A stretch of 64,000 nt of DNA, taken from sequence record PZ452596.1. The stretch is one strand, 5' to 3'. Position 1 is the stretch's first letter. The number at the start of each line of letters is the position of its first letter. Below the pieces are notes generated by a model. The model had not been told where the DNA came from. It made no database searches and worked only from the letters and a program-made list of their open reading frames with translations. The translations under genes were made by a program, and so were the position numbers. This DNA comes from a phage. Shown piece by piece: positions 14,530-62,128 of this stretch.

Positions 14530-14590
14530 GTATTGCCGATAGTTGTATAGTACCATGGAAGAACAGGGATGTAAACAGTTTTGCGAAAAA
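14530..14590 (-). promoter_or_regulatory. T4-type early promoter (repeat family copy)
   Basis: minus strand GTTTACA -spacer- GGTACTATACAACTATC...; shares ~45 bp with copies at 31205, 34836, 62068. Confidence 0.5.
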
Positions 14591-14607
14591 ATTTTTGAAA
14601 TAAAAAA

Positions 14608-14626
14608 GGGGACCCTAGAGGTCCCC
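14608..14626 (-). terminator. rho-independent terminator after gene 32
   Basis: GGGGACC-CTAGA-GGTCCCC hairpin followed on minus strand by TTTTTTATTT. Confidence 0.8.
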
Positions 14627-14649
14627 CAATTAATTAGTAATATAATCTA

Positions 14650-15558
14650 TTAAAGGTCATTCAAAAGGTCATCCAGGTCCGTGTCATCAGCACTAGATGA
14701 ACTGCCAGAGCTTGAGCTCATAAAATCATCTTCAGTTTTTGTATTGAAGTCATCAACATTGAATGCATCCAAATCATCAGCAACTTTATCAGCTTTCTTA
14801 GCAGCAGTTGCAGCGGCACCGCCCATCACAGCAGTTCCCATAACTTGACCGAATTTAGTATTCAGTTCTTCAAACGATTTGAATTTATCTTTAGAAGTCA
14901 TTTCAGAAAGGTCAACCATTTGTTCGAACAGTTCTTTCTGGAAAGATTCATCATCAATGTTTGGAATCGCAGATTGATTCAGGAATTTAGATTCATCGTA
15001 GTTACTAAATCCAGAAACTTGTTTAACTTTCAGTACAAAGTTAGCACCTTCCCACGGACAAGTTACATCAACCGGAGTTTCACCCATTTCGACATCAACT
15101 GCAATCATCGCGTTGATTTTATCCCAGATTTTCTTACCGAAACGGTATTTAAATACTTTACCTTCGTTTTCTGGAGCAGCTGGGTCTTTTACTACAAGAA
15201 TGTTAGCCCAGTAAGAAGTTTTGCGTTTAATAAGACTGTACTCTTTATTGTCAGTGTTGTATAGATCATTTTTACTAATGTACTGACATACTGGACAAGA
15301 ATCGTAATCACCGTGGGTAGATGAGCAATTTTCGATATACCATTTACCGTTTTTCTTGAAACCGTGATTTACAAGAATTGCGAATGGTGCTTGTTCATCA
15401 TTTTTAGACGGAAGAAAACGAATTACTGCTTGACCGTTACCCGCATTATCGAGTTTCAGTTTCCACTCGCCTTTATCTTCAGAAGAAAAACCACCTTTAT
15501 TTCCAGCCAGTTTAGCCATTTGTGCAGCGAGTTCAGCAGTAGATTTACGTTTAAACAT
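14650..15558 (-). CDS. 32: single-stranded DNA-binding protein gp32
   Basis: 302 aa, acidic Ser/Asp-rich C-terminal tail; matches T4 gp32. Confidence 0.95.
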
Positions 15559-15640
15559 TTTTATTTCCTTTTTAATTTAATTAACAGTTGGTGCTATGAC
15601 GATGTATGACCTCATAGCTGGTCAGTGAGATAATTATAAT
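15559..15640 (-). promoter_or_regulatory. gene 32 leader / autoregulatory translational operator region
   Basis: AU-rich unstructured leader UUAAAUUAAAAAGGAAAUAAAA before AUG; operator role known from T4. Confidence 0.5.
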
Positions 15641-15641
15641 C

Positions 15642-15649
15642 TATTTATA
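15642..15649 (-). promoter_or_regulatory. late promoter core TATAAATA upstream of gene 32
   Basis: exact TATAAATA on minus strand. Confidence 0.4.
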
Positions 15650-15657
15650 ATAAGCAA

Positions 15658-16311
15658 TTAATACTTGCAGGATTTCACAGTTTCAATGAAAACACTTTTA
15701 GCTTTCTGTGAATCAATATTTAAAATTTTTCTATAAGCTTTTAACTTTATAGAAAAATTATTCCAAACTAAATTATCAGTCTGTTCATCATGTTTATCAA
15801 TTATATTTAAAAACGAATCAAGTAAGATAAACGTCTCAAACGAAATTATATTCGATTGAAGCAGTTTAAAAATATAACTTGACTGAACTTTTGGATTATA
15901 TTCAAAGATTTCTTTAAAAGCAGAAACTTCAACTTTCTTACTAAAATAATAAATGTTGCGAATATCTTCTTCAAACTTAAATTTAATTTGCTTTAAGCGT
16001 CCGATATATTCACGATAAAACACAAGTGCATCAGCGTCAGAGATGTCACCAATCCAAGCATCTTGGTTAGCAACAAGATTGCTTATAAAGATTAAAGCAA
16101 GTTCCTTTAATTTATATTTTTCTGATAACTTCTGGAAAAAATACTTATCCCTTCGCTTTTGATAAGCGGCATCAGACACCCGCATGCACCAATTATACTT
16201 AATTACATCATACTTTCCATTCATATGCTGTTTTATCATTAAGTATAATTTATAAACTGATTTACCATCAATGTATCTTTCACCACCAGCAGGCATGCGG
16301 AGTTTAATCAT
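15658..16311 (-). CDS. 59: helicase loader gp59
   Basis: 217 aa, same length and position as T4 gp59. Confidence 0.9.
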   Translation of the reverse strand: MIKLRMPAGGERYIDGKSVYKLYLMIKQHMNGKYDVIKYNWCMRVSDAAYQKRRDKYFFQKLSEKYKLKELALIFISNLVANQDAWIGDISDADALVFYREYIGRLKQIKFKFEEDIRNIYYFSKKVEVSAFKEIFEYNPKVQSSYIFKLLQSNIISFETFILLDSFLNIIDKHDEQTDNLVWNNFSIKLKAYRKILNIDSQKAKSVFIETVKSCKY

Positions 16312-16646
16312 AGCAGAAAATCTAATGTATTAGTTTTTTCACAACGAACAACAGAAGGACGTAAAAGATTTTCGTCAATGGCTTCTGACTGAATTTTTTC
16401 AATTATACCCGAAGGAATAAATTTAGCAAATTGAGTTTCAGGAATAGAATTTTCTTCTAAGAATGCTGTTGTAGCTTCAAGATAACTCATTCCAAACTCT
16501 TCTACCATTTTTTCAATAATAAATCCATTTTCTTGACGATCAAGAAGCTTTGCGATTTCATCTTTTTCCTTTTTAAGGGAAAGTTCTTTTTCTGAAAGCC
16601 CGGCCTCATCGACCGGGCGAATATCATTTAGAGAAAACTGTGTCAT
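16308..16646 (-). CDS. 33: late transcription co-activator gp33
   Basis: 112 aa from MTQFSLNDIRP...; position 59-33-dsbA. Confidence 0.85.
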   Translation of the reverse strand: MTQFSLNDIRPVDEAGLSEKELSLKKEKDEIAKLLDRQENGFIIEKMVEEFGMSYLEATTAFLEENSIPETQFAKFIPSGIIEKIQSEAIDENLLRPSVVRCEKTNTLDFLL

Positions 16647-17819: not shown

Positions 17820-17881
17820 ATGAACCTCGTTCAATTAGTGAGATTTCTATTATATACCATCCAAATCTTAAAGTAAACAAG

Positions 17882-17923: not shown

Positions 17924-20900
17924 ATGGCCGAGATTAAAAGAAAGTTCAGAGCAGAAGATGGTCTGGACGCAGGTGGCGATAAAATAATCAACGTAGCTTT
18001 AGCTGATCGTGCCGTAGGAACTGACGGTGTTAACGTTGATTACTTAATTCAAGAAAACACAGTTCAACAATACGATCCAACTCGTGGATATTTAAAAGAT
18101 TTTGTAATCATTTATGATAACCGCTTTTGGGCTGCTATAAATGATATTCCAAAACCAGCAGGAGCTTTTAATAGCGTACGCTGGAGAGCGTTACGTACTG
18201 ATGCAAACTGGACAACTGTTTCATCAGGACCTTATCAATTAAAATCGGGTGAATCAATTTCAGTTGATACTGCAGCTGGTAATGACATTACATTTACTTT
18301 ACCATCTACCCCAATTGACGGTGATACTATCGTTCTCCAAGATATTGGAGGAAAACCTGGAGTTAATCAAGTTTTAATTACAGCTCCGGTACAAAGCATT
18401 GTAAATTTTAGAGGTCAGCAAGTACGTTCAGTACTAATGACTCATCCAAAATCACAGATAGTTTTAATTTTTAGTAATCGTCTGTGGCAAATGTATGTCG
18501 CTGATTATAGTAGAGAAGCTGTAGTTGTAACGCCTGCGAGTCTCTATCAGGCGCAATCAAACGATTTTATCGTACGTAGATTTACTTCTGCTTCAGCAAT
18601 TAATATTAAACTTCCAAGATTTGCCAATCATGGCGATATTATTAATTTCGTTGATTTGGATAAATTAAATCCTCTTTATCACACAATTGTTACTACATAT
18701 GATGAAACAACTTCAGTACAAGAAGTTGGAACTCATTCCATTGAAGGTCGTACATCGATTGACGGTTTCTTGATGTTTGATGATAATGAGAAATTGTGGA
18801 GATTGTTTGATGGGGATAGTAAAGCACGTTTACGCATTATAACAACTAATTCTAATATTCGTCCAAATGAAGAAGTCATGGTATTTGGCGCGAATAATGG
18901 AACAACCCAAACAATTGAACTTCAGCTTCCGACTGATATTTCTGTTGGTGATACTGTCAAAATTTCCATGAATTACATGAGAAAAGGACAAACGGTTAAA
19001 ATCAAAGCTGCAGGTGAAGATAAAATTGCTTCTTCAGTTCAATTGCTGCAATTCCCAAAACGCTCAGAATATCCACCTGAAGCTGAGTGGGTTACAGTTC
19101 AAGAATTAGTTTTTAACGGTGAAACTAATTATGTTCCAGTTTTGGAGCTTGCTTATATTGAAGATTCTGATGGAAAATATTGGGTTGTACAGCAAAACGT
19201 TCCAACTGTAGAAAGAGTAGATTCTTTAAATGATTCTACTAGAGCAAGATTAGGGGTAATTGCTTTAGCTACACAAGCTCAAGCTAATGCTGATTTAGAA
19301 AATTCTCCACAAAAAGAATTGGCAATTACTCCAGAAACGTTAGCTAATCGTACTGCTACAGAAACTCGTAGAGGTATTGCAAGAATAGCAACTACTGCTC
19401 AAGTTAACCAGGATACTACATTCTCTTTTGCTGATGATATTATCATCACTCCTAAAAAGCTGAATGAAAGAACAGCTACTGAAACTCGCAGAGGTGTTGC
19501 TGAAATTGCTACACAGCAAGAAACTAATACAGGAACCGATGATACTACAATCATCACTCCTAAAAAGCTTCAAGCTCGACAAGGTTCTGAATCATTATCT
19601 GGTATTGTAACTTTTGTATCTACTGCAGGTGCTACTCCAGCTTCTAGCCGTGAATTAAATGGTACGAATGTTTATAATAAAAACACTAATAATTTAGTTG
19701 TTTCACCTAAAGCTTTGGATCAGTATAAAGCTACTCCAACACAGCAAGGTGCAGTAATTTTAGCAGTTGAAAGTGAAGTAATTGCTGGACAAAGTCAGGA
19801 AGGATGGGCAAATGCGGTTGTAACACCAGAAACGTTACATAAAAAGACATCAACTGATGGAAGAATTGGTTTAATTGAAATTGCTACGCAAAGTGAAGTT
19901 AACACAGGAACTGATTATACTCGTGCAGTCACTCCTAAAACTTTAAATGACCGTAGAGCAACTGAAAGTTTAAGTGGTATAGCTGAAATTGCTACGCAAG
20001 TTGAATTCGACGCAGGCGTCGACGATACTCGTATCTCTACACCATTAAAAATTAAAACCAGATTTAATAGTACTGATCGTACTTCTGTTGTTGCTCTATC
20101 TGGATTAGTTGAATCAGGAACTCTCTGGGACCATTATACCCTCAATATTCTTGAAGCAAATGAGACACAACGTGGTACACTTCGTGTAGCTACACAAGTT
20201 GAAGCTGCTGCAGGAACATTAGATAATGTTTTAATAACTCCTAAAAAGCTTTTAGGTACTAAATCTACTGAAGCGCAAGAAGGTGTTATTAAAGTTGCAA
20301 CTCAGTCTGAAACTGTGACTGGAACATCAGCAAATACTGCTGTATCTCCAAAAAATTTAAAATGGATCGTGCAGAGCGAACCTACTTGGGCAGCAACTAC
20401 TGCAGTAAGAGGCTTTGTTAAAACTTCATCTGGTTCAATTACATTCGTTGGTAATGATACGGTAGGTTCAACACAGCCATTAGAATCATATGAGAAAAAT
20501 AGCTATGCAGTATCACCATATGAATTAAACCGTGTATTAGCAAATTATCTGCCGTTAAAAGCAAAAGCTGTAGATAGTAATTTATTGGATGGTCTAGATT
20601 CATCTCAGTTCATTCGTAGGGATATTGCGCAGACGGTTAATGGTTCACTAACCTTAACCCAACAAACGAATCTGAGTGCCCCTCTTGTATCATCTAGTAC
20701 TGCTACGTTTGGTGGTTCAGTTACGGCAAATAGTGTACTAACTATTTCTAATACTGGAACAGAAACTCATCTGATTTTTGAGAAAGGACCTCAAACTGGA
20801 ACTAACCAAGCACAGACGGTGACTATTAGAGTGTGGGGTAATCAATTTAGTGGGGAATCAGATACAACACGTTCTACTGTATTTGAAGTTGGTGATGAAA

Positions 20901-28739: not shown

Positions 28740-28892
28740 TCAATTAGTTGACTTTGTTATAATATCATCAGACGCTTGATTTGTAAACTGGTCTGTGTTA
28801 TTTTCTTCAAAAATTTTTTCTACGAATTCCTTGAACGACTCGCGTTCCTGAGCTGCATTATGCTCGATTACCTTTTCAAGATTATGACTCAT
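28740..28892 (-). CDS. hypothetical small acidic protein
   Basis: 50-aa ORF (MSHNLEKVIEHNAAQ...) found by hand; ATGA overlap with arn stop. Confidence 0.35.
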   Translation of the reverse strand: MSHNLEKVIEHNAAQERESFKEFVEKIFEENNTDQFTNQASDDIITKSTN

Positions 28893-29749: not shown

Positions 29750-30210
29750 TAGTAAAGGTCCTCAGAGTAAAGTTCTTTTTCACTACCACCACGTTCAATA
29801 CGTACTTGTCCAGCGTAAGTTGCAATAATCATTGCTTCTTCACGTGTCCAATAATTACTATATTGGTCAATAAACCCCTGGTCATCATCACAAACTTGCT
29901 GAGTCACTAATTGAGGTTTAACTATATCTAAAACTGCTGCCATATCTTTAGAATAATGACGAGCACCTGGAATAATAAGAGTTCGTCCATCTTTTAATTT
30001 AAAACGGTTGGCTGCGCAAACAATCCGTCGTTGATACTTTTGGTTTTCATCCCAGTATGCAGACTGCCAACAGATTTCAGGAACTTCTTTTAGAATATCT
30101 TCTTCTGTGCATTTATAACCATGCGCTTTAAATTTTTCAGCAAGACTTTCTGGAGTTTCACGAGATAAAGGAACATTCAGCATTTTTAAACGATTGATAA
30201 ATGGGTTCAT
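29749..30210 (-). CDS. hypothetical protein (arn-motA cluster)
   Basis: 153-aa ORF. Confidence 0.5.
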
Positions 30211-30536
30211 TTAAACCATCCTTTAATACGTTGCCACAAAGTTTTCTGTTGAGCTTTGTTAACACCAATTGAGCGAATAACTGGTTGAGATTCCTGGAAT
30301 TCTTTATAATCAGCAAGGTAAATTTCGTAAGCTGCATTTGTAAATGAACTTATCGCTGCCATAAAATTATTGCGAATACCTACTGGAGCATCTTTACTTT
30401 CACGAATAATCATGTATTTACCAGTCTTAATCTTTACGATAGTTCCAAGATAAGCTCCATGATACCAGATGTCCCAACCCTCTTGAGTAGGTTCTGCACA
30501 ACGACGAAGTTCATTAACAATTTCTAACTTGTTCAT
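30207..30536 (-). CDS. hypothetical protein (motA.1 position)
   Basis: 109-aa ORF immediately upstream of motA. Confidence 0.5.
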
Positions 30537-30546
30537 TATTTATTCC

Positions 30547-31182
30547 TCACAGTTCAGATGCTACAGCGATTACTGCTTCAATGTTTTCTGCCGAGCGTTT
30601 AATGTCAAGATACACATTACCGTTTTTAGCGATTTTACATGACATTCCGATGTCAGTAAATTTCTGAATATGATGTTCCATCATTTTGTATCCAAAAATT
30701 CGCATATTTCCATTGTTGTTAATTTCAAAATTGCGAATTCCGTGAGTGCGTTTTTCTAAAATAGCGAGATAATTACTACGATAAGTTTCAACCTTTTTAA
30801 GAACAAATCCATTTTCATCTAAAAGTTTTAACATGAAGTCTTTATCTTCTTCCATATCAGAAGTAATCTCGCGAGCTTTACGAGTTGCTCGTTTTTTCAG
30901 CAGTTCCGGAGCATTTTCCTGTGCATATAAAGTTGCTGCATTTGAAATAATATCCTGAGCTTCACCAGTAATGATTAATCCATCACCAGATTTCTCCACC
31001 AGGCCTTTTTTAATCAATACCCCAATATTACTATTAACTACTGCGTTACCTAAATCTGGATGCACCTCACGAACTTCTGCAGCTGTAATGAAATCTTTCT
31101 TAGCAATAGTAATTAAAATCGCAGCAGTTTTTTCATTCAGAACATCGTTAGAAGCTTTGATGATGTAAGTTACTTTAGACAT
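30547..31182 (-). CDS. motA: middle-transcription activator MotA
   Basis: 211 aa, same length as T4 MotA. Confidence 0.9.
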   Translation of the reverse strand: MSKVTYIIKASNDVLNEKTAAILITIAKKDFITAAEVREVHPDLGNAVVNSNIGVLIKKGLVEKSGDGLIITGEAQDIISNAATLYAQENAPELLKKRATRKAREITSDMEEDKDFMLKLLDENGFVLKKVETYRSNYLAILEKRTHGIRNFEINNNGNMRIFGYKMMEHHIQKFTDIGMSCKIAKNGNVYLDIKRSAENIEAVIAVASEL

Positions 31183-31204
31183 TTTCTAATCTCCGTAATT
31201 CTGT

Positions 31205-31265
31205 ATCAGTAGTTGATAGTTGTATAGTACCACAGTATGCTTTGGTTGTAAACCGTTTTGTGAAA
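31205..31265 (-). promoter_or_regulatory. T4-type early promoter upstream of motA (repeat family copy)
   Basis: minus strand GTTTACA... GGTACTATACAACTATCAACTAC. Confidence 0.5.
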
Positions 31266-31284
31266 AAAATTTTTAAATAAAAAA

Positions 31285-31304
31285 GGGAGAGCCGAGGCTC
31301 TCCC
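31285..31304 (-). terminator. rho-independent terminator between motA promoter region and gene 52 operon end
   Basis: GGGAGAGCC..GGCTCTCCC hairpin followed on minus strand by TTTTTTATTT. Confidence 0.7.
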
Positions 31305-31309
31305 TAAAA

Positions 31310-31459
31310 TTACTGCATGACTGTGATAACTGTCATGATAACACGTTGAATTCCGAACGCAAGAAGACCTCCTGCTACAGCTGGAACAACGCCTAACCCC
31401 GCCAGTAAAATGCTACCAGATACTAATGCAGCGCTTGTAATACCAATGAATGGACTCAT
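31310..31459 (-). CDS. small hydrophobic membrane protein
   Basis: 49 aa (MSPFIGITSAALVSGSILLAGLGVVPAVAGG...); ATGA overlap with gene 52 stop; below ORF-track cutoff. Confidence 0.4.
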   Translation of the reverse strand: MSPFIGITSAALVSGSILLAGLGVVPAVAGGLLAFGIQRVIMTVITVMQ

Positions 31460-34234: not shown

Positions 34235-34334
34235 AATAAGCGTTTAATACATCAATCATTAAAACGATTGGGAATATACTCAAAACTATTAGTATTATAA
34301 CTACATTCCATATAGCTTTAACAATCTTTTTCAT
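34221..34334 (-). CDS. small membrane protein (ndd-denB cluster)
   Basis: 37 aa from MKKIVKAIWNVVIILIVLSIFPIV...; early promoter just upstream. Confidence 0.35.
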   Translation of the reverse strand: MKKIVKAIWNVVIILIVLSIFPIVLMIDVLNAYFGFM

Positions 34335-34344
34335 TTTCTGTTCC

Positions 34345-34405
34345 TCCGTAGTTGATAGGGTAATAATACCACAGAGGAACAGTCTTGTAAACAACTTTTT
34401 AAAAA
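34345..34405 (-). promoter_or_regulatory. T4-type early promoter (repeat family copy)
   Basis: minus strand GTTTACAAGACTGTTCC... ; variant -10. Confidence 0.45.
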
Positions 34406-34608
34406 TATTCGTAATAAATGTGAATACCAATCACCACTGCCGAAACTTGTGCAACCCACCACGCACAAGCAATAAGTACAGAATTAAAAATTTTCATAAT
34501 AACCTCATCACAAAAGTAAATGTTAAACAAATTAATGGAATACTAATTAACCAAACAAAACACCACCATAATGAACTCATAGTTCAATCTCAACGATTTT
34601 CATTTTAC

Positions 34609-34827
34609 TCAATAATCCGCTAAAAGATCGACGATTGCATCACGAAGACACTTATTCGCAATACGTTTAAGAGCAATTTCAGTTTCTGGAGCATTTTGAA
34701 TAATCATTGAATTCAATTCAGCCTCAGCAAACTGAAGTTCTTTAACTAATTCAGCTTTATATTTTCCTTGCCCTTTCTTAGCTTTTGCTCGTTTTAATTC
34801 AGCTGTAGTAAACATTTTATTCTCCAA
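34609..34827 (-). CDS. hypothetical protein (ndd-denB cluster)
   Basis: 72-aa ORF preceded by early-promoter repeat. Confidence 0.45.
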   Translation of the reverse strand: MENKMFTTAELKRAKAKKGQGKYKAELVKELQFAEAELNSMIIQNAPETEIALKRIANKCLRDAIVDLLADY

Positions 34828-34831
34828 ATCC

Positions 34832-34895
34832 GTATCAGTTGATAGTTGTATATTACCACAGTCCTTGTGGTATGTAAACAGTTTTGTGAAAAAAT
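34832..34895 (-). promoter_or_regulatory. T4-type early promoter (repeat family copy)
   Basis: minus strand CTGTTTACATACCACAAGG...GGTAATATACAACTATCAAC. Confidence 0.45.
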
Positions 34896-34899
34896 TTTT

Positions 34900-35457
34900 T
34901 TAAATGGAAAGATACCATCCATTGTAGTTGCTTTTTCTTACAACCTTACGAAGGTCTTCTCTATCACCGATGAATTTCGGAGTGTACTGGATGACACCTG
35001 GATGAATTTCTTTAGTGTTGAATATAATTATACAGTCAGCGACTTGGTGATTCAGAATGGGCCCTAGATTTATTCCAGAACCGTATGGATACTCTCCGCT
35101 GCATCCGGTTGTTACCGAAATCCATCGTGAGTCAGTTTGATGTGTTTTGACTTCTACACGAAGCCCACAGTATTTTGGATGCGCCAATACATCCCATGCA
35201 TATGTATATGGGTCATTAACATCCTCTTGGCCTTTGTTAACATACCCGCTTAGCCAATCTGCTACAAAAAATTCTGCGTACACAGCGATACGGCATCTTT
35301 CGATAACTTCTGCCTTATCCTGATTTGGGTTTTGTTTTAAAGAGTATCTTGCAGTATCAGCAATTTTGACCTTCATTTCATTGGTTAAATCGCTGTTCGA
35401 TAGAGTAAATGTCGGAATCTGAAATAGTCTCTGTAGCCCCGGATTCGTTTTCTGCAT
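34900..35457 (-). CDS. denB: endonuclease IV (dC-specific)
   Basis: 185 aa, same length and position as T4 DenB. Confidence 0.88.
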   Translation of the reverse strand: MQKTNPGLQRLFQIPTFTLSNSDLTNEMKVKIADTARYSLKQNPNQDKAEVIERCRIAVYAEFFVADWLSGYVNKGQEDVNDPYTYAWDVLAHPKYCGLRVEVKTHQTDSRWISVTTGCSGEYPYGSGINLGPILNHQVADCIIIFNTKEIHPGVIQYTPKFIGDREDLRKVVRKSNYNGWYLSI

Positions 35458-39105: not shown

Positions 39106-39124
39106 TTCAATATCCTCATTTGCC

Positions 39125-39165
39125 CAATTAATTATACCACATCCTTGTGGTAAAGTAAACTACTG
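39125..39165 (-). promoter_or_regulatory. early promoter upstream of rIIA.1/rIIA
   Basis: minus strand GTTTAC -16- GGTATAAT. Confidence 0.5.
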
Positions 39166-42512: not shown

Positions 42513-42782
42513 TTAATTGAACAGTGGAGCGATACGTTTCAGAAGAGTAGCAGCACCTTTGGCAAATTTTACATCATGAAAAACAGTTTCTTCTTCCGTT
42601 ACAACACGAGCTTTAATGTTTTCACAATCCCAATTTTTGCGAACAATCTTCAAAAGCTGCAGTAAATCTTTACATTCAGCAATATCGATAACACATCCAC
42701 GAGAATCTTCCATTATCGCACGATAACCGTAAGCCATACCATAATCATTGAAAGATTGCTCGATGATAATTAAATTTTCCAT
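42513..42782 (-). CDS. hypothetical protein
   Basis: start at MENLIIIEQ; track ORF start overlaps the upstream early promoter. Confidence 0.45.
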   Translation of the reverse strand: MENLIIIEQSFNDYGMAYGYRAIMEDSRGCVIDIAECKDLLQLLKIVRKNWDCENIKARVVTEEETVFHDVKFAKGAATLLKRIAPLFN

Positions 42783-42804
42783 TTTATTCTCCAAGTTTTT
42801 CTGT

Positions 42805-42870
42805 ATCAGTAGTTGATATTGATATAGTACCATAATCAACTACTGATGTATATAGTTTTATGAAAAAAAT
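42805..42870 (-). promoter_or_regulatory. T4-type early promoter (repeat family copy, diverged)
   Basis: shares CAGTAGTTGATA...TAGTACC core with other copies. Confidence 0.4.
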
Positions 42871-42888
42871 TTTAAACTTTATGCAAAT

Positions 42889-43317: not shown

Positions 43318-43836
43318 TTAAGCTTTACGAGGAGAAGCATAACGAGTGATTTCAGATTCTTCAACAACCCGGAAGTCACCTAAGAATACGATATTGTAGA
43401 GCTTTTCACCATCTTCAACCCATTGGTCTGTGATGAAGCCACACATCCTATCAGTTTTACTTGGACCAGCGAAATCATCAATATAATCGAATTCTTCATC
43501 AGTTACAAATTCAACGCCTTTACACAACGCCCATTTAAATTGTGCATTAGACTCAGTGGATTCAACTTCTTCAACAGAAGCAAAATGAGAGCTAACACGA
43601 GTTTCCAGAAATTTAGGACTTACGTAAGCGTACTGAGTTTCAGTTTTTCCAGAACTAGGAATGATTCGAACTTTAACTTCTTTAACACGACCAGTACCAT
43701 TAGTACGAAGTCCTACCACTTCAACTAGACGACCTGCAGCTTTAGAACGAGATGCAGACGATACACGCTTAATTTCACCGATAGTAATCATAATTTTTCT
43801 CTCTTTGTTGTTAAGATTTATACTCCGCAGGACCAT
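43318..43836 (-). CDS. MotB-region paralog 2 (MotB-like by position and size)
   Basis: 172 aa; SRSKAAGRLVEV and GFITDQWVEDGEKLYNIVF motifs. Confidence 0.5.
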   Translation of the reverse strand: MVLRSINLNNKERKIMITIGEIKRVSSASRSKAAGRLVEVVGLRTNGTGRVKEVKVRIIPSSGKTETQYAYVSPKFLETRVSSHFASVEEVESTESNAQFKWALCKGVEFVTDEEFDYIDDFAGPSKTDRMCGFITDQWVEDGEKLYNIVFLGDFRVVEESEITRYASPRKA

Positions 43837-43863
43837 TATACTCTGGTCCCAAGAGTTTGTAAA

Positions 43864-44301
43864 TTAGCTTACACGAACATTAATCACTGCGCTGCGAGGA
43901 ACTACAGAGTACTCTCCAGCATGAACTACGTTCAGAAGTTCAACACCATCTTCAATCCACTGATCAGTCACCCATCCACCCACAGGATTCGCGAATGGAC
44001 GACGAATATAAACTGCCTTACACAGCAGATCAGTTGGATCTTCAGGTTTTTCAATTTCTGTCAATAGACTAAAATCTTTTTCATAAATAATAAGCGATGA
44101 TACCATTCCATAATAGTTTCTAATTTCAATATACATCATACCGATAAGAATTCCGCTATTAACACTAATAACAGTAAAAGGATATCCGCCAGTTAAACCA
44201 AGAAGTTCACAAAACTTATTATGAGCTGTATTAGACAGTACCGAAAAATTCTTAATTTCATCAAATTTTTTCAATTGATAAACAGCATTATTTTTAATCA
44301 T
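43864..44301 (-). CDS. MotB-region paralog 3 (C-terminal domain only)
   Basis: 145 aa; C-terminal GGWVTDQWIEDGVELLNVVHAGEYSVVP homologous to the two preceding ORFs. Confidence 0.5.
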   Translation of the reverse strand: MIKNNAVYQLKKFDEIKNFSVLSNTAHNKFCELLGLTGGYPFTVISVNSGILIGMMYIEIRNYYGMVSSLIIYEKDFSLLTEIEKPEDPTDLLCKAVYIRRPFANPVGGWVTDQWIEDGVELLNVVHAGEYSVVPRSAVINVRVS

Positions 44302-44815: not shown

Positions 44816-44829
44816 TTTATTATCCTCAG

Positions 44830-44880
44830 TAGCTATAGTGTTATAATACCATAACTAACCGAGGAAGTAAACAACTTTTT
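44830..44880 (-). promoter_or_regulatory. early promoter candidate downstream of dexA
   Basis: minus strand GTTTAC with GGTATTATAAC -10 region. Confidence 0.4.
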
Positions 44881-45562
44881 ATCGTTTTGTTGGAAGAGAC
44901 AGAGGATCGCACTCTTCCTCTGACGGAGCATCTTCAAGACCCATAGCGTATCGCAAAGCATACTTCATCATCAGGATGTCTTTCGCGCAGTCATGAATAG
45001 AATCATGTGCAACGAATCCATCTAAAGTTCCTTTTGGAAGAGGACACGTGGTCATATCACGAACAAGCAGAAGTGCTTCAATTCTGGTACGAATATCACG
45101 CTGATTCCAGAATTTACAAGGTTCTAACTTAAATGTATCAAGCTCATTCTCGGAAACGCCGTTAAGACGTTGAATATCGCGAATGAGATCGACTAAAATT
45201 GGAAAATCAAACGACATTCCACGGCACCAACCTTGAGATTTCCAAGGATCGATGTTATGTGCATTGATGTAATCATTAAATTTTGCAATACCATCGATAG
45301 TGCTTACATCTTCATCGGATGGTGCAATATTTTTTCGAGCTTCAGGAGACTGGTTTTTCCACCATTCGATAGTGCTTTTAGTAAAAAGACGATGTCCTTT
45401 TTGGCTTTTTAAATCAAATTTGATTTTAATGCCACGTGAAACTAATTCATCAAATGTTTCAACAACTTCTGGGTTAGGGTCAAAGGCAATAACAGCCAAA
45501 TCAATAACAGCTGCTTTTTCACCACTTCCCATTGTTTCAAAATCTATAATAAAATCAAACAT
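44879..45562 (-). CDS. dexA: exonuclease A (DnaQ-like 3'-5' exonuclease)
   Basis: 227 aa, DFETMG exonuclease motif at N-terminus; matches T4 DexA. Confidence 0.9.
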   Translation of the reverse strand: MFDFIIDFETMGSGEKAAVIDLAVIAFDPNPEVVETFDELVSRGIKIKFDLKSQKGHRLFTKSTIEWWKNQSPEARKNIAPSDEDVSTIDGIAKFNDYINAHNIDPWKSQGWCRGMSFDFPILVDLIRDIQRLNGVSENELDTFKLEPCKFWNQRDIRTRIEALLLVRDMTTCPLPKGTLDGFVAHDSIHDCAKDILMMKYALRYAMGLEDAPSEEECDPLSLPTKR

Positions 45563-45819
45563 TAAACTTTCCTCGCTAAATCGCGAATTTGGCCTACAGT
45601 ATAGTCTTGAATATAAACTTTATTAATAGGCTCATCAATAAATTTTGCCATAGATTCAATATCTTTTTGTATCTTTTCAAGACTGTATACTATCTTTGAA
45701 GCTTTTTCACGAATAGTAATATTTTCAGGACCTGGATTTTCTTCAATGACAGCTTTAACATTTGTCATAAGAGATTTAAACTGGTACCAACTCAACTCAA
45801 TCATTAATAATCGCCTCAT
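45562..45819 (-). CDS. hypothetical protein, paralog A (dexA-dda spacer)
   Basis: 85 aa; similar to adjacent 86-aa ORF. Confidence 0.45.
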   Translation of the reverse strand: MRRLLMIELSWYQFKSLMTNVKAVIEENPGPENITIREKASKIVYSLEKIQKDIESMAKFIDEPINKVYIQDYTVGQIRDLARKV

Positions 45820-46057
45820 AAAGATAGCTAATTTCGCCTAAAACGTAATCATTGATTGTAACAGTTTTCACTTCACCACAAAAGAATTCTAACGCAATTA
45901 AATCTCGTTCAATTTCTTCTAATTGAAGCATCAACTTACTAGATTCAATTTTTACAGTTTCACGATTTTTACCATGAGCAATTTCATAAATTTCGCTAAC
46001 TTTATCCTGAAGAAGATAAAACTGATCTTTAGTTATTTCCACGAATAGCTTCCTCAA
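45797..46057 (-). CDS. hypothetical protein, paralog B (dexA-dda spacer)
   Basis: 86 aa; aligns with paralog A (MRxL..E..QF..L...V..I.E...NDY..G.I). Confidence 0.45.
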   Translation of the reverse strand: MRKLFVEITKDQFYLLQDKVSEIYEIAHGKNRETVKIESSKLMLQLEEIERDLIALEFFCGEVKTVTINDYVLGEISYLYEAIIND

Positions 46058-48671: not shown

Positions 48672-48796
48672 ATTTTTCTCACATCTTACAGACGATTTAA
48701 TACTTTATTACTATAACATTTTTACCTTAACTTGTAAACAACTTTATGTAAAAATGCTTTAAAAATTTCATGGTATAATGAATCTAAGTCCTTCCA

Positions 48797-50034: not shown

Positions 50035-50085
50035 CTTCAGAAGCTATCATATCATTGTTAGAAAGGAAAGTAAACAACTTTTTGA
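50035..50085 (-). promoter_or_regulatory. early promoter candidate upstream of modB
   Basis: minus strand AAGTTGTTTAC then -10-like ATGATATGATA. Confidence 0.4.
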
Positions 50086-52126: not shown

Positions 52127-52204
52127 AGTGTTCTCCTCTATAAGATATTTTTATTATACCACACTCATTTTGACATGTAAACCATAAAATGAAAAAAGGA
52201 ATCC

Positions 52205-54368: not shown

Positions 54369-54533
54369 TTACTCTTCTTTTTCTTTAGATTCCTCTTTTT
54401 TCTTTTTAGGAATCTGTTCAGGACCTTTATTTACTACAGCACCTGATGTTGTTCCAGTAGAGATATTTTCAGGATTACCACCTGAATCTCCAGCAACCAT
54501 ATCTTCTTTAATAAATTCTTTATATGTTTTCAT
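54369..54533 (-). CDS. hypothetical small protein
   Basis: 54-aa ORF MKTYKEFIKEDMVAG... found by hand; ATG lies inside the 49-bp repeat. Confidence 0.35.
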   Translation of the reverse strand: MKTYKEFIKEDMVAGDSGGNPENISTGTTSGAVVNKGPEQIPKKKKEESKEKEE

Positions 54534-54579
54534 ATTAACCTCTATTCATAAAAGCATTAAAAATTTGGTCATCAATAGA
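54531..54579. repeat. 49-bp direct repeat, copy 1
   Basis: catattaa[c]ctctattcataaaagcattaaaaatttggtcatcaataga; 48/49 identical to copy 2. Confidence 0.9.
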
Positions 54580-54891
54580 TGGAATAGCAACCTTTTCGGC
54601 ATCATTTAGCAAATCATTAATTTCATCAGATAGCATAACACATGTGCCTTTATTTCCTGTAATTGTTACTGCACAATTACGAACGTTTTCTTTATCAAAT
54701 TTTAGGTTAATATTTTCGTAGTGAAAATCCTTTAATGCCGAGTATATCTTTAAAATGAAATTGTCTTTTACTACAATAAACCCAACTTCACTATTAAAAC
54801 GTGGTTCATGGAAACTGTAATAAACCTTTTCATCTATGAAATCGTATGAAATTTTTTCCATTTTTAAATATGAAAATTCAGAACTATACAT
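54535..54891 (-). CDS. 61.x-family paralog (short)
   Basis: 118 aa; C-terminal SIDDQIFNAFMNR identical to next ORF; one copy of GFIVVKDN domain. Confidence 0.5.
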   Translation of the reverse strand: MYSSEFSYLKMEKISYDFIDEKVYYSFHEPRFNSEVGFIVVKDNFILKIYSALKDFHYENINLKFDKENVRNCAVTITGNKGTCVMLSDEINDLLNDAEKVAIPSIDDQIFNAFMNRG

Positions 54892-54937
54892 ATTAATCTC
54901 TATTCATAAAAGCATTAAAAATTTGGTCATCAATAGA
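54889..54937. repeat. 49-bp direct repeat, copy 2
   Basis: same sequence 358 bp away; spans C-terminal 13 codons, stop and next ATG of the paralog. Confidence 0.9.
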
Positions 54938-56349: not shown

Positions 56350-56395
56350 CCAACAAGACTACTATACCATAGTCTTGTCAGCTTGTAAACTAAAA
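56350..56395 (-). promoter_or_regulatory. early promoter candidate upstream of dmd
   Basis: minus strand GTTTACA then ATGGTATAGT -10-like. Confidence 0.4.
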
Positions 56396-60271: not shown

Positions 60272-61002
60272 TCACCGTTATAATCTTTTTTCACAATATG
60301 AGTTTCGCCAGTATTCCACCAATGATCAACCAAGTAAAAATGACGAGAATATACATGAAGACTTCCAACATTCCATATAATAGAACCTGCTTTATACTGA
60401 CGAGTTGAATCGCCTGCATTCAAATCAGATACTAATTTATCTAATACGTATTTTTGCCATGCATAATCATTACGGAATCCGAAGACCACGTCATTTGAGC
60501 GCATGCTTACTACTGCATTGACTTTCTTATCACGAATCAGGTACTGTACTGTATTCGTACACATGAAATCTGACATACCATCTTTATTGTAGTCAAATTG
60601 CATGGATGGACGAGTATAAATCATGATACCACGTCGAGAATCAGGATTTTGACCAAGTTCAGCTAAACACATGTCATATTGAGCATAGTTATCTTCTGAC
60701 CAGATAGCCCAACCATAATTCGAGTTAATTTCACCTTTAGAAGATGCTACTTGTTGCCAAATCTTCGGTGTTTCACCCGGAATATCTTTAACGAACAAGC
60801 TCTTAGATTTATACCATTCAAGTTCACGCTGAATGTATTCATCATTAAGAGCGCCAAAAATAAACGGTTCATCTGCTACAAATGATGCGCCAATAATTTC
60901 AATAGTTTTAACACCAGTTTTATCAACTACGAAATCTTTTTCTTTTAATGCAAGCCCCAAATGAAGACGGATTTCTTCAACTGTCATAGAGTCACTAATC
61001 AT
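60262..61002 (-). CDS. 42: dCMP hydroxymethylase gp42
   Basis: 246 aa, ThyA-like fold; matches T4 gp42. Confidence 0.95.
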   Translation of the reverse strand: MISDSMTVEEIRLHLGLALKEKDFVVDKTGVKTIEIIGASFVADEPFIFGALNDEYIQRELEWYKSKSLFVKDIPGETPKIWQQVASSKGEINSNYGWAIWSEDNYAQYDMCLAELGQNPDSRRGIMIYTRPSMQFDYNKDGMSDFMCTNTVQYLIRDKKVNAVVSMRSNDVVFGFRNDYAWQKYVLDKLVSDLNAGDSTRQYKAGSIIWNVGSLHVYSRHFYLVDHWWNTGETHIVKKDYNGEWK

Positions 61003-61009
61003 TTAAACC

Positions 61010-61159
61010 TCAATTGATACATTCATATTTAACTTGTAACAGTAATAAACCCCAACCTAAAATAATAGTCGGAATCATAAGAGGAACCGTTACACTATAG
61101 TATATACTTATTATAATCATCAAGATTAAAAGCAACACTGCTATAATTTTGCTTTTCAT
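61010..61159 (-). CDS. small hydrophobic membrane protein (imm.1 position)
   Basis: 49 aa MKSKIIAVLLLILMIIISIYYSV... found by hand; ATGA overlap with imm. Confidence 0.35.
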   Translation of the reverse strand: MKSKIIAVLLLILMIIISIYYSVTVPLMIPTIILGWGLLLLQVKYECIN

Positions 61160-61407
61160 TCCTTCTCTCTGATGATAATTACTTGATTTGGCTGTGCAGA
61201 CTTTTTGGTTTCACCCGCAATTGACCAAATAAATGTAATAAACCAACCAATAATTGACCAGTTAAACAGCAAAGACGTGAAAAAGATTCCTACTGTCGAT
61301 TTTGACCCACGCATCAAGGCGATAAACCATGGAAGCATGTATATAATAATAGCCAACACACCTGAAACTAAAACCATAAAAATTGAACCTGCTACTAAAG
61401 TTTCCAT
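61156..61407 (-). CDS. imm: Imm, immunity to superinfection membrane protein
   Basis: 83 aa, two TM helices; matches T4 Imm. Confidence 0.9.
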   Translation of the reverse strand: METLVAGSIFMVLVSGVLAIIIYMLPWFIALMRGSKSTVGIFFTSLLFNWSIIGWFITFIWSIAGETKKSAQPNQVIIIREKE

Positions 61408-61414
61408 GTTTTCC

Positions 61415-61795
61415 TCACTTAGTCAAATTTTTTACACATGAATTATAAGAATTCACTACATACTCCATCGGAGCATTTTTACCAGTACGCCATTGGTAAT
61501 TATTAGCCCAATTAGCCCAAAGCTCGGCGCAGTAGTTTTCAATTTTTTCTTCGCGTGTAATTACATCCGAATTACGATATGCTTGAGCAGATTCATCTGG
61601 ACGAATAGCTTCGTCAAAATTCGCCTGCATTTGTTCTACTGTTTGCTTTGGAGCTTCTTTATAACACTTGACATTAGGATTATAAAATTTGCTTGAACAG
61701 TTTACAATTTTTCCTACATCAGACTGATTTACTACCGGTCCTTGAGCTACACAACCAGTAAGACCTAATGCAATAACCAAAATAGCGATTTTCAT
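61415..61795 (-). CDS. predicted lipoprotein
   Basis: 126 aa; MKIAILVIALGLTGCVAQG: signal peptide plus lipobox L-T-G-C. Confidence 0.5.
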   Translation of the reverse strand: MKIAILVIALGLTGCVAQGPVVNQSDVGKIVNCSSKFYNPNVKCYKEAPKQTVEQMQANFDEAIRPDESAQAYRNSDVITREEKIENYCAELWANWANNYQWRTGKNAPMEYVVNSYNSCVKNLTK

Positions 61796-61807
61796 AATAA
61801 TTTCCTC

Positions 61808-62059
61808 TTAAAACTTAACAAATAACTTTAAAGCATCTTCAGTTTTAATTCCTTTTCTTACACCCATAACAGAAATTGGCTGTGACTGAAATTTTCCTTT
61901 ACCATTATAAATTTCTAATCCAGTAACCATTCCATTTTGTTCTATAATACCGTAAGTGTTACCTTCATTTTCAAATTCTTTAACTTTAAAGAGTTTATTA
62001 GCTTTTTCTGCGTTAACAACTTTTAAATTTTGAATAAAATTAGTTTGAATATTTTTCAT
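61808..62059 (-). CDS. hypothetical protein
   Basis: 83-aa ORF directly downstream of an early promoter repeat. Confidence 0.45.
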   Translation of the reverse strand: MKNIQTNFIQNLKVVNAEKANKLFKVKEFENEGNTYGIIEQNGMVTGLEIYNGKGKFQSQPISVMGVRKGIKTEDALKLFVKF

Positions 62060-62067
62060 TTTGTGTT

Positions 62068-62128
62068 CCTCCGTAGTTGATAGTTGTATAGTACCATGGA
62101 AGAACAGTCTTGTAAACAGTTTTGTGAA
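62068..62128 (-). promoter_or_regulatory. T4-type early promoter downstream of gene 43 terminator (repeat family copy)
   Basis: near-identical to copies at 14535 and 31210. Confidence 0.5.

Follow-up and report, generated by a model that had tools for sequence, protein, structure and literature searches.

Repeated T4-type early promoters in phage RB27 and their relation to known promoter cassettes

The early promoters of phage T4 are UP/-35/TGn/-10 promoters with extra consensus regions (PMC2988021). Repeats built around such promoters have been described in the PeSL cassettes, in which a repeated early promoter is accompanied by an AT-rich upstream tract, a Shine-Dalgarno (SD) motif and a start codon and, in the strict sense, by an adjacent stem-loop terminator; that work covers T4/PST, gives the consensus TTTACW-N17-TAYWAT, includes an exchange at ndd.4/.5 as a published example and speculates on a helper protein (PMC2839356, PMC4122927). 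In the T-even IP locus, according to the part of Repoila et al. (1994) that is related in PMC2839356, early-promoter repeats flank variable small genes, and shuffling was proposed. A different arrangement is found at the T4 late genes e, soc, 49, I-TevI/II/III and segB, whose translation is gated by a hairpin with a promoter inside it (PMC3014915, PMC2988022).

The DNA analysed here (the window) is a stretch of 64,000 nucleotides which is 100% identical to phage RB27 (Tequatrovirus) and wraps over the ends of its record. The six repeats described below are most probably ordinary strong early promoters of this T4-like phage, of a kind already well described.

Six copies among eighteen early promoters

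A sequence-only reading of the window had proposed six minus-strand copies of an early-promoter element (14535, 31210, 34349, 34836, 42810 and 62073), and all were recovered at these places, far above chance. A repeat search returned them as a family (D1) of exactly six copies (14534, 31211, 34350, 34837, 42811 and 62075), all in direct orientation. The 23-mer GGTACTATACAACTATCAACTAC had four matches in the window at up to three mismatches, against 0.00 expected; it is exact only at 31209 and 62073, and the copies at 34835 and 42809 carry three mismatches. The pattern GTTTAC-N(12-16)-GGTANTATA had five matches, also against 0.00 expected. Numbered 1 to 6 below, the copies may alternatively be labelled by the first base of their -35 element (14576, 31253, 34392, 34879, 42853 and 62117). 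The copies and their flanking terminators are:

14501..14601, minus strand: copy 1 (14535), frd.3 early promoter; -35 GTTTACA 14570-14576, -10 TACTAT 14547-14552, predicted +1 14540, frd.3 ATG 14501-14503.
14602..14627, minus strand: gene 32 intrinsic terminator; stem GGGGGACC..GGGTCCCC at 14608-14627 and T-run.
31180..31278, minus strand: copy 2 (31210), motA early promoter; -35 31247-31253, -10 TACTAT 31224-31229, predicted +1 31217, SD GGAG, motA ATG 31180-31182.
31279..31305, minus strand: intrinsic terminator after motA.1, directly upstream of copy 2; stem 31285-31304 and T-run.
34332..34417, minus strand: copy 3 (34349), ndd.4 early promoter; -10 TATTAT, predicted +1 34356, ATG 34332-34334.
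34813..34904, minus strand: copy 4 (34836); predicted +1 34843, ATG 34813-34815.
42780..42878, minus strand: copy 5 (42810), RB27_009 promoter; degenerate -35 ATATACA, predicted +1 42817, ATG 42780-42782.
62057..62142, minus strand: copy 6 (62073); predicted +1 62081, ATG 62057-62059 of the inserted ORF RB27_048.
62199..62220, minus strand: gene 43 terminator, GGGACCTCCGGGTCCC and T-run, some 80 nt upstream of copy 6.

The T4-type early promoters of the window are built of an UP tract, GTTTACA as the -35 element, a spacer of 17 bp, TGn and TAnnAT. All six copies have an A/T-rich UP tract of the AAAAATTTTTTCACAAAAC type at -40 to -60, TGG before the -10 element, and a TAnnAT -10 element at 17-bp spacing from the TTTACA hexamer. 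The GTTTACA that had been read as common to them is present in five, but copy 5 has ATATACA instead. Copy 3 differs in its -10 element and discriminator (TATTAT TACCCT), and copy 1 diverges past ...ACAACTATC. The earlier description of the elements as near-identical over 45-60 bp did not hold: aligned together, the copies show pairwise identities of 0.60-0.84 (mean 0.69) over -36..+9 and of 0.50-0.84 when the comparison is extended to -36..+20, and no two of them have more than 29 nt in common without a mismatch.

The six are also not the whole family, since the minus strand of the window carries 18 promoters of T4 early type (0-6 in shuffles). The other twelve are:

2035..2071, minus strand: ortholog of T4 Pe133295, driving the inserted ORF RB27_213 (cd.2 in T4); a GGTAGAGTT/AGCTCTACC hairpin surrounds the -10, z = -2.90.
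5010..5046, minus strand: alc early promoter; spacer pairs with SD (GTCCCTCGTGTTGTGT / ACATAACATGAGGAC), z = -4.16.
13529..13565, minus strand: early promoter before an unannotated 22-aa ORF and frd.1, whose UP tract is the site of the RB27_233 insertion; a 12-bp hairpin surrounds the -10, z = -2.49.
17842..17878, minus strand: rnh early promoter, ortholog of the mapped T4 Pe148.6 (+1 = 150,727); without hairpin.
28752..28788, minus strand: asiA early promoter; without hairpin.
39124..39160, minus strand: rIIA.1 early promoter; only a small hairpin within the spacer.
43828..43864, minus strand: motB early promoter; a ACTCTTGGGACC/GGTCCTGCGGAGT hairpin surrounds the -10, z = -2.77.
44836..44872, minus strand: motB.2 early promoter, just downstream of dexA; 17-bp hairpin of spacer with SD, z = -4.21.
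48703..48739, minus strand: srd early promoter; without hairpin.
50039..50075, minus strand: modB early promoter; -10 hexamer and discriminator pair with SD..AUG, z = -3.69.
52146..52182, minus strand: mrh.2 early promoter, behind a terminator whose T-run lies 15 nt upstream; without hairpin.
56354..56390, minus strand: dmd early promoter; 15-bp hairpin around the -10, z = -4.02.

Within this larger set the six copies nevertheless stand apart as a distinct sub-cluster, with a mutual identity of 58-76% as compared to 31-59% in all other pairings; the UP tracts are 0.64 identical within the six (0.35 otherwise) and the sequences after the -10 element 0.61 (0.32 otherwise). With a 91-nt copy as the query, 3979 places were found in 566 phage records, at 7-9 (about 8) copies per Tequatrovirus genome, T4 having 8; each Tequatrovirus genome in IMG/VR contains the exact core 3-6 times.

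T4 orthologs were identified for all 18 promoters; early promoters of T4 are reportedly also treated by Liebig & Ruger (1989) and Miller et al. (2003). Copy 1 corresponds to the T4 promoter whose -35 G is at 146875, copy 2 is identical to its ortholog (-35 G at 163673) from the -35 G through the leader, and copy 6 is the ortholog of the mapped Pe26.4, which drives imm.1 in T4. The motB.2 promoter is, judging by map position, probably the 'P8.1' of T4. Computed as the -35 G minus 36, the T4 starts come to 27,044 for Pe26.4 and 150,727 for Pe148.6 (PMC6024815), and the coordinate of Pe133295 was taken from the T4 sequence record; in these three of the 18 the predicted +1 of the T4 ortholog coincides with the published or named one, copy 6 being the one of the six compared in this way. 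As compared to the 'uber' UP/-35/TGn/-10 class of T4 (PMC2988021, PMC1524935), the RB27 promoters have the same architecture and the same -35 GTTTAC, with no essential difference; in three cases RB27 has an additional small ORF immediately after the promoter. The architecture, the placement before start codons and the T4 orthologs thus support the reading of the elements as early promoters.

Start site and conserved leader

Because three of the T4 orthologs match mapped T4 starts, +1 was assigned to the A of ATCAACTAC, and the ACAACT before it is then an untranscribed discriminator. In RB27, host RNA polymerase would recognise the A/T-rich UP tract, GTTTACA, the 17-bp spacer, TGn and TAnnAT, and would start transcription at this A, 7 nt past the -10 element. 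The leader upstream of the annotated start codon is 22-37 nt long in the six copies, and would end in a GGAG-type SD followed by the first early gene (frd.3, motA, ndd.4, RB27_268, RB27_009 and RB27_048, respectively).

This start position implies that transcribed conservation across the family, although real, extends over about 9 nt and not the 20 or so previously suggested. The common part ATCAACTAC comprises +1..+9 in four copies, +1..+7 in a fifth and +1..+3 in copy 1; longer sharing is limited to particular pairs (copies 5 and 2 to +19, copies 6 and 3 to +18). Among non-redundant promoters of distant T4-like genera a start-site motif is seen (-3 C in 61%, -1 T in 70% and +1 A in 67%), ATCAAC stands at +1 in 22 of 117 non-redundant promoters and in none of the control window, and RB69-like frd.3 promoters keep ...ATCAACTA although their spacers are unrelated. 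What the six copies share beyond the other promoters is located in three segments, UP tract, discriminator and +1..+9; selection on the family-wide start-site motif would account for part of it, and common descent together with exchange among the copies for another part. As judged from these alignments, the conserved leader itself is in part the family-wide motif and in part shared ancestry.

It is conceivable, but rather doubtful, that the transcribed segment and the SD are conserved mainly for post-transcriptional control and not as a by-product of recombination, whether as a RegB/S1 endonuclease target, an initiation/escape element or a regulatory hairpin's 3' arm; such a role would complement the main explanation and not exclude it. 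A GGAG SD is present in five of the six leaders, the SD of motA is a known RegB site in T4 (PMC2988021), and two leaders carry a perfect GGAGRAYARAA RegB/S1 consensus (PMC3014915), that of copy 4 as GGAGAATAAAA and that of copy 5 at the SD. Copies 3, 5 and 6 have a strong hairpin whose 3' arm is formed by the leader or SD. The segment +1..+9 itself, however, lies outside the RegB consensus, and ATCAACTAC is unpaired in copies 2 and 4.

Early promoters enclosed in predicted hairpins

In copy 3, the spacer CTGTTCCTCTGTGG pairs with the leader/SD sequence CTACGGAGGAACAG in a 15-bp hairpin (z = -4.27); in copy 5, TCAGTAGTTGAT of the spacer pairs with ATCAACTACTGA of the leader (z = -4.77), and in copy 6 it is the SD, GGAGGAACA, with which the spacer TGTTCTTCC pairs (z = -3.70). 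The SD is covered in copies 3 and 6, whereas the hairpin of copy 5 stops short of it, as does the 3' arm in about four of the ten window hairpins.

Hairpins with z <= -2.5 were observed in 10 of the 18 early promoters of the window, and a hairpin is present at 9 of the 18 promoter-associated TIRs as compared to 2 of the 87 others. In a set of 108 non-redundant promoters from diverse T4-like phages, 28% were enclosed by a hairpin (2-6% in controls), with the SD inside the 3' arm in 28 of 30 cases. In the usual layout the 5' arm is upstream of +1 and the 3' arm over the SD/AUG. Covariation supports the hairpins: the motB.2 stem shows a double change from A-U to G-C between RB27 and T4, and the modB hairpin covaries among orthologs.

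The late-gene gating of T4 is similar in that the 5' arm lies upstream of the start of the internal promoter, the 3' arm lies on the SD/AUG, and the hairpin can be formed only by read-through RNA; the soc hairpin of this window (z = -3.85) falls in the same range. It is different in that the internal promoter in RB27 is an early (sigma-70) one, with the -35/-10 spacer or the -10 element and discriminator serving as the arm. Early-promoter hairpins do not appear in the reviews of this gating, where the known cases 'are all late genes' (PMC3014915, PMC2988022). The predicted hairpin may possibly mask the following gene's ribosome-binding site on read-through transcripts, and is the only element described here that is possibly new.

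Promoter copies as proposed sites of cassette exchange

The inserted ORFs RB27_213, RB27_268 and RB27_048 each lie behind the leader or SD of a promoter, ahead of the gene under its control in T4, and RB27_233 lies in a UP tract; copy 4, followed by RB27_268 in RB27, drives ndd.6 in T4. The difference next to the RB27_009 promoter reflects an internal deletion in T4 and was not mediated by the promoter. The copies share with PeSL cassettes (PMC2839356, PMC4122927) the repeated early promoter with its AT-rich tract, followed at its 3' end by SD and start codon (in all six), a position next to small ORFs that have been gained, lost or replaced among close relatives, here RB27 and T4, and crossovers between the -10 element and SD/ATG or in the AT tract. 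The gene 32 terminator directly abuts the UP tract of copy 1, a PeSL-type arrangement of terminator and promoter. In the flanks of the six copies an upstream terminator stem-loop was adjacent to copies 1 and 2, about 80 nt away from copy 6, and lacking at copies 3, 4 and 5, so that only two of the six have the adjacent stem-loop of PeSL in the strict sense. The PeSL papers analysed phages other than RB27. The IP-locus repeats are likewise T4-early-promoter-based and lie beside variable small genes, but at other loci, the IP region being outside the RB27 window.

An improbable alternative is that the similarity is purely convergent, each promoter having been independently optimised for the host (and Alt-modified) RNA polymerase with no exchange between copies. 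The consensus that distant T4-like genera share, start-site motif included, and the RB69-like frd.3 promoters described above would agree with this. The similarity nevertheless reaches positions with no known promoter role and is mosaic, the +1..+19 sharing is confined to specific pairs, and the ORF cassettes sit exactly at leader or SD junctions. In addition, from the -10 hexamer to the end of the fourth codon, leader included, T4 Pe(ndd.6) and Pe26.4 differ in a single base of the SD-ATG spacer, and promoter function alone is therefore insufficient as an explanation. Relatives display mosaic, reticulate combinations of spacer, leader and ORF, in which the same spacers recur before differing leaders and ORFs, and in the Tequatrovirus genomes of IMG/VR at least nine different ORFs follow the same exact core. 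A mobile nature of the repeats, whether as a MITE/REP-like element, autonomous or not, or as a target on which a dedicated recombinase or a homing enzyme acts, is highly implausible: dispersal in a single orientation and the helper protein speculated on for PeSL speak for it, but the copies have no terminal inverted repeats and no target-site duplications beyond 7-nt SD repeats, they occupy fixed, orthologous sites in RB27 and T4, copy number is steady at about 8 over hundreds of genomes, and the homing endonuclease insertions of the window (seg, mob, introns) lie elsewhere.

The proposal that the elements act as sites of homologous recombination is indirectly backed by the junctions, the mosaics and the PeSL precedent, but exact matches between copies are short (<=29 nt), and efficient classical homologous recombination is therefore not guaranteed. 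Recombination between neighbouring PeSL copies would give mini-circles, for which copies 3 and 4, 487 bp apart, are a candidate pair. In the one genome pair compared, RB27/T4, about 5 of 22 discontinuities fall at promoters as against about 3.8 expected if all 105 gene junctions are equally likely, which is not a significant enrichment. Indel junctions, mosaicism and the roughly eight copies per genome indirectly support recombinational shuffling, which is the published PeSL model in its T-even form; the observation as a whole is real, had been correctly interpreted and is already known. We consider it very probable that the six copies are sigma-70-dependent T4-type early promoters, a paralogous sub-family which serves as linkers for the recombination of ORF cassettes. 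As portable 'promoter + leader + SD' units, they would be the points at which co-infecting relatives recombine, homologously or through microhomology, so that small ORF cassettes are inserted, deleted or swapped.

Six early promoters of the T4 type

The DNA belongs to Enterobacteria phage RB27 (NC_025448.1/KM607000.1, Tequatrovirus, 165,179 bp), to which window positions 30000-36000 and 40000-46000 are 100% identical; genes were taken from the RefSeq record of RB27. The window spans the end of the linear record, so that positions x up to 36713 correspond to record x + 128466 and larger ones to record x - 36713. The gene order is 31.1/cd, nrd, td, frd, 32, tail-fibre genes 34-38, asiA, motA and 52, followed by ndd, denB, rIIB/rIIA, 39, motB, dexA, dda, mod, soc, 61, 41, uvsX and gene 43, and nearly the whole region is transcribed from the minus strand. 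Several RefSeq product names of tiny ORFs are misleading: ndd.4 (RB27_265, window 34221-34334) appears as 'naphthalene 1,2-dioxygenase', dexA.2 (window 45797-46042) as 'dextranase' and T4 imm.1 as 'iduronate sulfatase'. MotB-like paralogs stand in tandem at window 42889-43791; they make up repeat families D6, D7 and D13. At 19432-20272, a 52-nt motif is repeated four times inside tail-fibre gene 34 (family D4).

The sequence-only reading had described at least six dispersed, near-identical promoter elements. The six copies are real: a repeat search grouped 14534, 31211, 34350, 34837, 42811 and 62075 as one family, a 23-mer had four matches in the window with up to three mismatches (0.00 expected), and the -35/-10 pattern had five (0.00 expected). 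Near-identical they are not, pairwise identity over -36 to +9 being 0.60-0.84 and the longest exact run between two copies 29 nt; the exact 23-mer occurs only twice. Copy 34349 reads TATTAT TACCCT in place of TACTAT ACAACT, copy 14535 diverges after ...ACAACTATC, and the GTTTACA attributed to all six is absent from copy 42810, whose -35 is ATATACA.

The window was scanned for [G/A/T]T[T/A][T/G/A]AC and TAnnnT separated by 15-17 nt, with TGn and an A/T-rich upstream tract scored. The scan returned 18 minus-strand promoters, named here by the coordinate of the -35 G, and one weak plus-strand match, compared with 0-6 in block shuffles. Among the 18, the six copies form a distinct sub-cluster, with a mutual identity of 58-76% versus 31-59% for all other pairings; the UP tract (0.64 versus 0.35) and the 22 nt that follow the -10 (0.61 versus 0.32) account for the excess. 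A PWM derived from the six copies yielded just three extra sites, being overfitted to the bases of the spacer, and was discarded in favor of this element-based model. A generic sigma-70 scan was uninformative in the AT-rich DNA of the window (75 sites versus 69.6 in shuffles), indicating that the signal lies in the composite architecture.

All 18 promoters have a syntenic ortholog in T4 (NC_000866), and for three of them the proposed comparison with mapped T4 early promoters yielded coincident positions. The early promoter named Pe133295 in the T4 record equals 133331 - 36, where 133331 is the -35 G of the ortholog of promoter 2071. The regions downstream of Pe26.4 and Pe148.6 start at 27,044 and 150,727 (Patterson-West et al. 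2018, PMC6024815), which equal 27080 - 36 (ortholog of copy 62117) and 150763 - 36 (ortholog of promoter 17878). These three matches place +1 at the seventh nucleotide after the -10 hexamer. Other T4 start coordinates were not found in the supplement of PMC6024815, and PMC6070864 gives no promoter coordinates. The start region of the six copies reads TACTAT-ACAACT-A(+1)TCAACTAC. Taken in the order of the list below, the corresponding T4 starts are predicted at 146839, 163637, 166771, 167050, 6594 and 27044.

The six copies (minus strand), with the +1 predicted by the T4-derived rule; annotated start codons lie 22-37 nt past +1
Copy 14535: -35 G at 14576, predicted +1 at 14540, first gene frd.3
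Copy 31210: -35 G at 31253, predicted +1 at 31217, first gene motA
Copy 34349: -35 G at 34392, predicted +1 at 34356, first gene ndd.4 (RB27_265)
Copy 34836: -35 G at 34879, predicted +1 at 34843, first gene RB27_268
Copy 42810: -35 G at 42853, predicted +1 at 42817, first gene RB27_009
Copy 62073: -35 G at 62117, predicted +1 at 62081, first gene RB27_048

For T4 early promoters Hinton (2010, PMC2988021) described an 'uber UP/-35/TGn/-10' class showing 'additional regions of consensus', and a GTTTAC -35 is typical of T4-like phages (Nolan 2006, PMC1524935); the six copies agree with this architecture. Judged from sequence, the finding is real and its interpretation essentially right, but it concerns textbook T4 early promoters and is already known. 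As given it is of little import: what it recovers, in another T-even genome, is the consensus of T4 early promoters and the model of PeSL-type shuffling (PeSL, promoter-early stem-loop cassette).

Conserved leaders and ORFs joined to promoters

Once +1 is fixed, ACAACT becomes an untranscribed discriminator. The leader, which had been thought to be conserved for about 20 nt, does begin with a shared ATCAACTAC, but this extends only over +1 to +9 in four copies, to +7 in 34879 and to +3 in 14576; longer identity is pairwise only (42853 and 31253 to +19, 62117 and 34392 to +18). The window and 74 IMG/VR loci together supply 117 non-redundant early promoters, of which 61% carry C at -3, 70% T at -1 and 67% A at +1; ATCAAC occurs at +1 +/- 2 in 22 of the 117 versus none in a control window. 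RB69-like frd.3 promoters have kept ...ATCAACTA despite unrelated spacers. In T4, the stretch that starts with the -10 hexamer, takes in the leader and extends over the first four codons (ATGAAAATCGCT) is the same in Pe26.4 and Pe(ndd.6) save for one base of the SD-ATG spacer, an identity that goes beyond what promoter function explains. Leader conservation is, on these alignments, partly a general property of T4-like early promoters, the remainder reflecting common descent.

A GGAG SD is present in five of the six leaders, which makes rapid inactivation of these transcripts by RegB likely. The strong RegB/S1 cleavage consensus, GGAGRAYARAA (Uzan & Miller 2010, PMC3014915), is matched perfectly at the SD in 34879 (leader ~34815-34825) and 42853 (~42782-42792), and RegB is already known to act at the motA SD.

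A blastn comparison of the window with the syntenic 72 kb of T4 revealed about 22 discontinuities, many of them introns or seg/mob homing-endonuclease genes missing from RB27. Four lie exactly at early promoters.

RB27 ORFs joined to early promoters
RB27_268: behind the leader/ATG of copy 34879 and ahead of ndd.6; TAAAATG repeat on both flanks
RB27_048: takes the place of the T4 leader segment that follows ATCAACTAC in copy 62117, and runs to the imm.1 ATG (T4 comparison)
RB27_213: inserted at promoter 2071, with the break inside the SD-ATG spacer (T4 comparison)
RB27_233: inserted into the A/T UP tract of promoter 13565 (T4 comparison)

The RB27_009 junction beside 42853 was ruled out as promoter-mediated: it is an internal deletion in T4, where (locus L008, ~6520-6594) an 11-codon remnant, MENSLKVLILF*, of the 89-aa RB27_009 (window 42513-42782) is left directly behind the early promoter, with promoter, SD and start codon spared.

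The insertion positions in RB27 agree with the crossover zones of PeSL mini-circles, which run from the -10 to the SD/ATG or lie in an AT-rich tract (Arbiol 2010). Comeau et al. (2014) described T4/PST PeSLs with the consensus TTTACW-N17-TAYWAT, using as a worked example ndd.4/.5, the locus of copies 34349 and 34836. In IMG/VR the exact core GGTAYTATACAACTATCAACT is confined to Tequatrovirus-like genomes, at 3-6 per genome, and precedes at least nine different ORFs, with spacers and leaders in varied combinations; the T4 frd.3 spacer AGCATAAAGCTTTATGG, for instance, is found elsewhere with a GATACGGATTTGGAGAATAAAATG leader and an unrelated ORF. A 91-nt copy used as query matched 3979 places in 566 phage records, with 7-9 per Tequatrovirus genome (eight in T4) and one in other genera. 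The suggestion that the elements serve as sites for homologous recombination is consistent with the four junctions and the mosaic combinations, but exact homology between copies does not exceed 29 nt. Breakpoint enrichment at promoters in this one genome pair was clear against a uniform-position null and not significant against a gene-junction null. Whereas a strict PeSL has an adjacent terminator, only two of the six copies have one upstream (14602-14627 and 31279-31305), and a third copy (62117) has one ~80 nt upstream. Shuffling of the six elements fits the published PeSL-type model and is already known; RB27 adds clean worked examples, with three ORFs placed precisely behind resident promoters.

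Three further observations concern this region. The CTGTTCTTCC-type frd.3 spacer (window 14552-14576), present in RB27 and four other Tequatroviruses with flanks nearly identical to T4, is wholly unlike T4 AGCATAAAGCTTTATGG, which contains a 12-nt palindrome (L005/L007, 146850-146875) and recurs at another promoter in other phages; the difference amounts to a spacer-sized replacement patch. A first reading as a conversion patch in RB27, whose frd.3 spacer equals that of Pe26.4, was dropped, as CTGTTCTTCC is the common Tequatrovirus state and T4 the outlier, and the replacement may have run in either direction. A 49-nt direct repeat (98% identical; window 54531-54579 and 54889-54937), at which RB27/T4 homology ends exactly, flanks RB27_035, a gene with no T4 counterpart; this looks like insertion or duplication of an ORF via a repeated gene-end/SD/ATG junction, not via a promoter. 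Finally, window 13437-13505 (minus strand) holds an unannotated 22-aa hydrophobic ORF (MFAPYIMAAVMLVCLYLLIKAC) with a GGAG SD and its AUG 25 nt past the predicted start of early promoter 13565; its sequence is also present, unannotated, between frd.1 and frd.2 of T4.

Pairing between promoter and leader

The -35/-10 spacer of the window early promoters is often complementary to the leader. When the 24 nt from the -35 G were paired with the 45 nt after the -10, the duplex was stronger than in 98% of shuffles for 8 of the 18 promoters. Whole-region folding gave z <= -2.5 in 10 of the 18, and -1.05 to +0.97 in the remaining eight; the published soc late-promoter hairpin in the same window scored -3.85.

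Hairpin z from whole-region folding, by promoter
62117: -3.70
56390: -4.02
50075: -3.69
44872: -4.21
43864: -2.77
42853: -4.77
34392: -4.27
13565: -2.49
5046: -4.16
2071: -2.90

Across the 105 minus-strand gene starts, z <= -2.5 was reached at 9 of 18 promoter-associated starts versus 2 of 87 others (Fisher p = 7e-7). An adjacent upstream terminator occurs at three promoters (52182, 31253 and 14576), and none of them has a hairpin.

A wider sample, 64 IMG/VR loci around dexA, provided 108 non-redundant predicted early promoters from diverse T4-like genera. A duplex of -17 kcal/mol or lower between [-35..-1] and [+1..+44] was found in 28% of these, versus 2% with the 5' part reversed, 2% with the natural 36 nt that lie further upstream and 6% for non-cognate pairs (Wilcoxon p = 5e-7). 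The SD lies inside the 3' arm in 28 of the 30 strong cases, none of which has a terminator within 70 nt upstream, versus 11 of the 78 others (p = 0.03). Promoter hairpins were also noted at loci L009-L058.

Pairing persists through sequence change. At the dexA-downstream promoter TTCCTCGGTTAG pairs with CTACTGAGGA in Tequatrovirus, and TTCTCCTCATG with CATGAGGAGAA in an RB69-like lineage; between RB27 and T4, the stem at 44872 differs by a double change from A-U to G-C, and that at 34392 by three transitions between Watson-Crick and G.U pairs. At the modB-type promoter, changes in the -10 hexamer and discriminator are matched by changes in the SD-AUG segment (TATGAT/ATCATG, TAGTAT/ATACTA, TATAGT/ACTATC, AGCTTC/GGAGGTT, GACCTT/GGAGGTC and GTCTTCC/GGAGGAC). 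RNAalifold on a MAFFT alignment of these orthologs, which is not structure-aware, recovered only 7 pairs, and the full helix register was then scored by counting structure pairs. Over the 18 aligned sequences, pairing within the 18-bp helix reaches 80%, versus 39-57% when it is slid, with double changes in nine pairs and a covariation score above all 500 shuffles.

A DNA-level inverted repeat or cruciform was judged less likely, since sense pairing exceeded antisense pairing (24 of 33, p = 0.001, with ~2.6 G.U per duplex). Together with the exchanges between Watson-Crick and G.U pairs, this favors RNA structure, although the asymmetry is partly compositional. A separate arrangement was observed downstream of dexA in three distant T4-like phages (L049, L051 and L052), in which an inverted repeat flanks the -35, e.g. 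AAAGGAACAG-TTTACAT-GCTGTTCCTTTTGTTG, giving an intrinsic-terminator-like hairpin with the -35 in the loop and a T-run in the spacer, a compact terminator/promoter overlap.

A possible gate on read-through transcripts

The hairpin is built from two parts: its 5' arm is supplied by the spacer, -10 or discriminator of the promoter itself, its 3' arm by the first gene's leader, SD or AUG. Because RNA started at +1 lacks the 5' arm, which is encoded upstream of it, the hairpin can form on read-through transcripts only. From its position we infer that, on RNA that arrives by read-through from early or middle promoters further upstream, the hairpin would hide the first gene's ribosome-binding site; it may also shield GGAG from RegB on such RNA, and RegB is inhibited by RNA structure (PMC3014915). 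Translation of that gene would then be confined to transcripts of its own promoter, in the first minutes of infection; alc, modB, motB.2, ndd.4 and dmd are the candidates for such restriction. Gating of read-through would explain why terminator-preceded promoters are without hairpins. In about four window cases (42853, 43864, 56390 and 13565) the 3' arm stops short of the SD, and here another role, such as in RNA stability or processing, is possible.

T4 e, soc, 49 and I-TevI have the same architecture, with an internal late promoter inside the hairpin (PMC3014915), and according to Edgell et al. (2010, PMC2988022) the genes in which it is known 'are all late genes', whereas the internal promoter described here is early. 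The hairpin embedding is the only element of this analysis that might be new; reviews describe the arrangement for late genes only, and priority is uncertain. That the masking mechanism is both correct and previously undescribed seems to us rather doubtful, and the extension of a promoter-in-hairpin temporal gate from late to immediate-early genes is put forward as a tentative proposal. If early promoters routinely lie in hairpins masking the ribosome-binding region, their spacers would have to satisfy both RNA polymerase and RNA pairing. If this is true, a simple structural basis would exist for 'immediate-early only' expression, and annotators could draw on the combined signature of hairpin and promoter to forecast which of the small ORFs are expressed and at what time.
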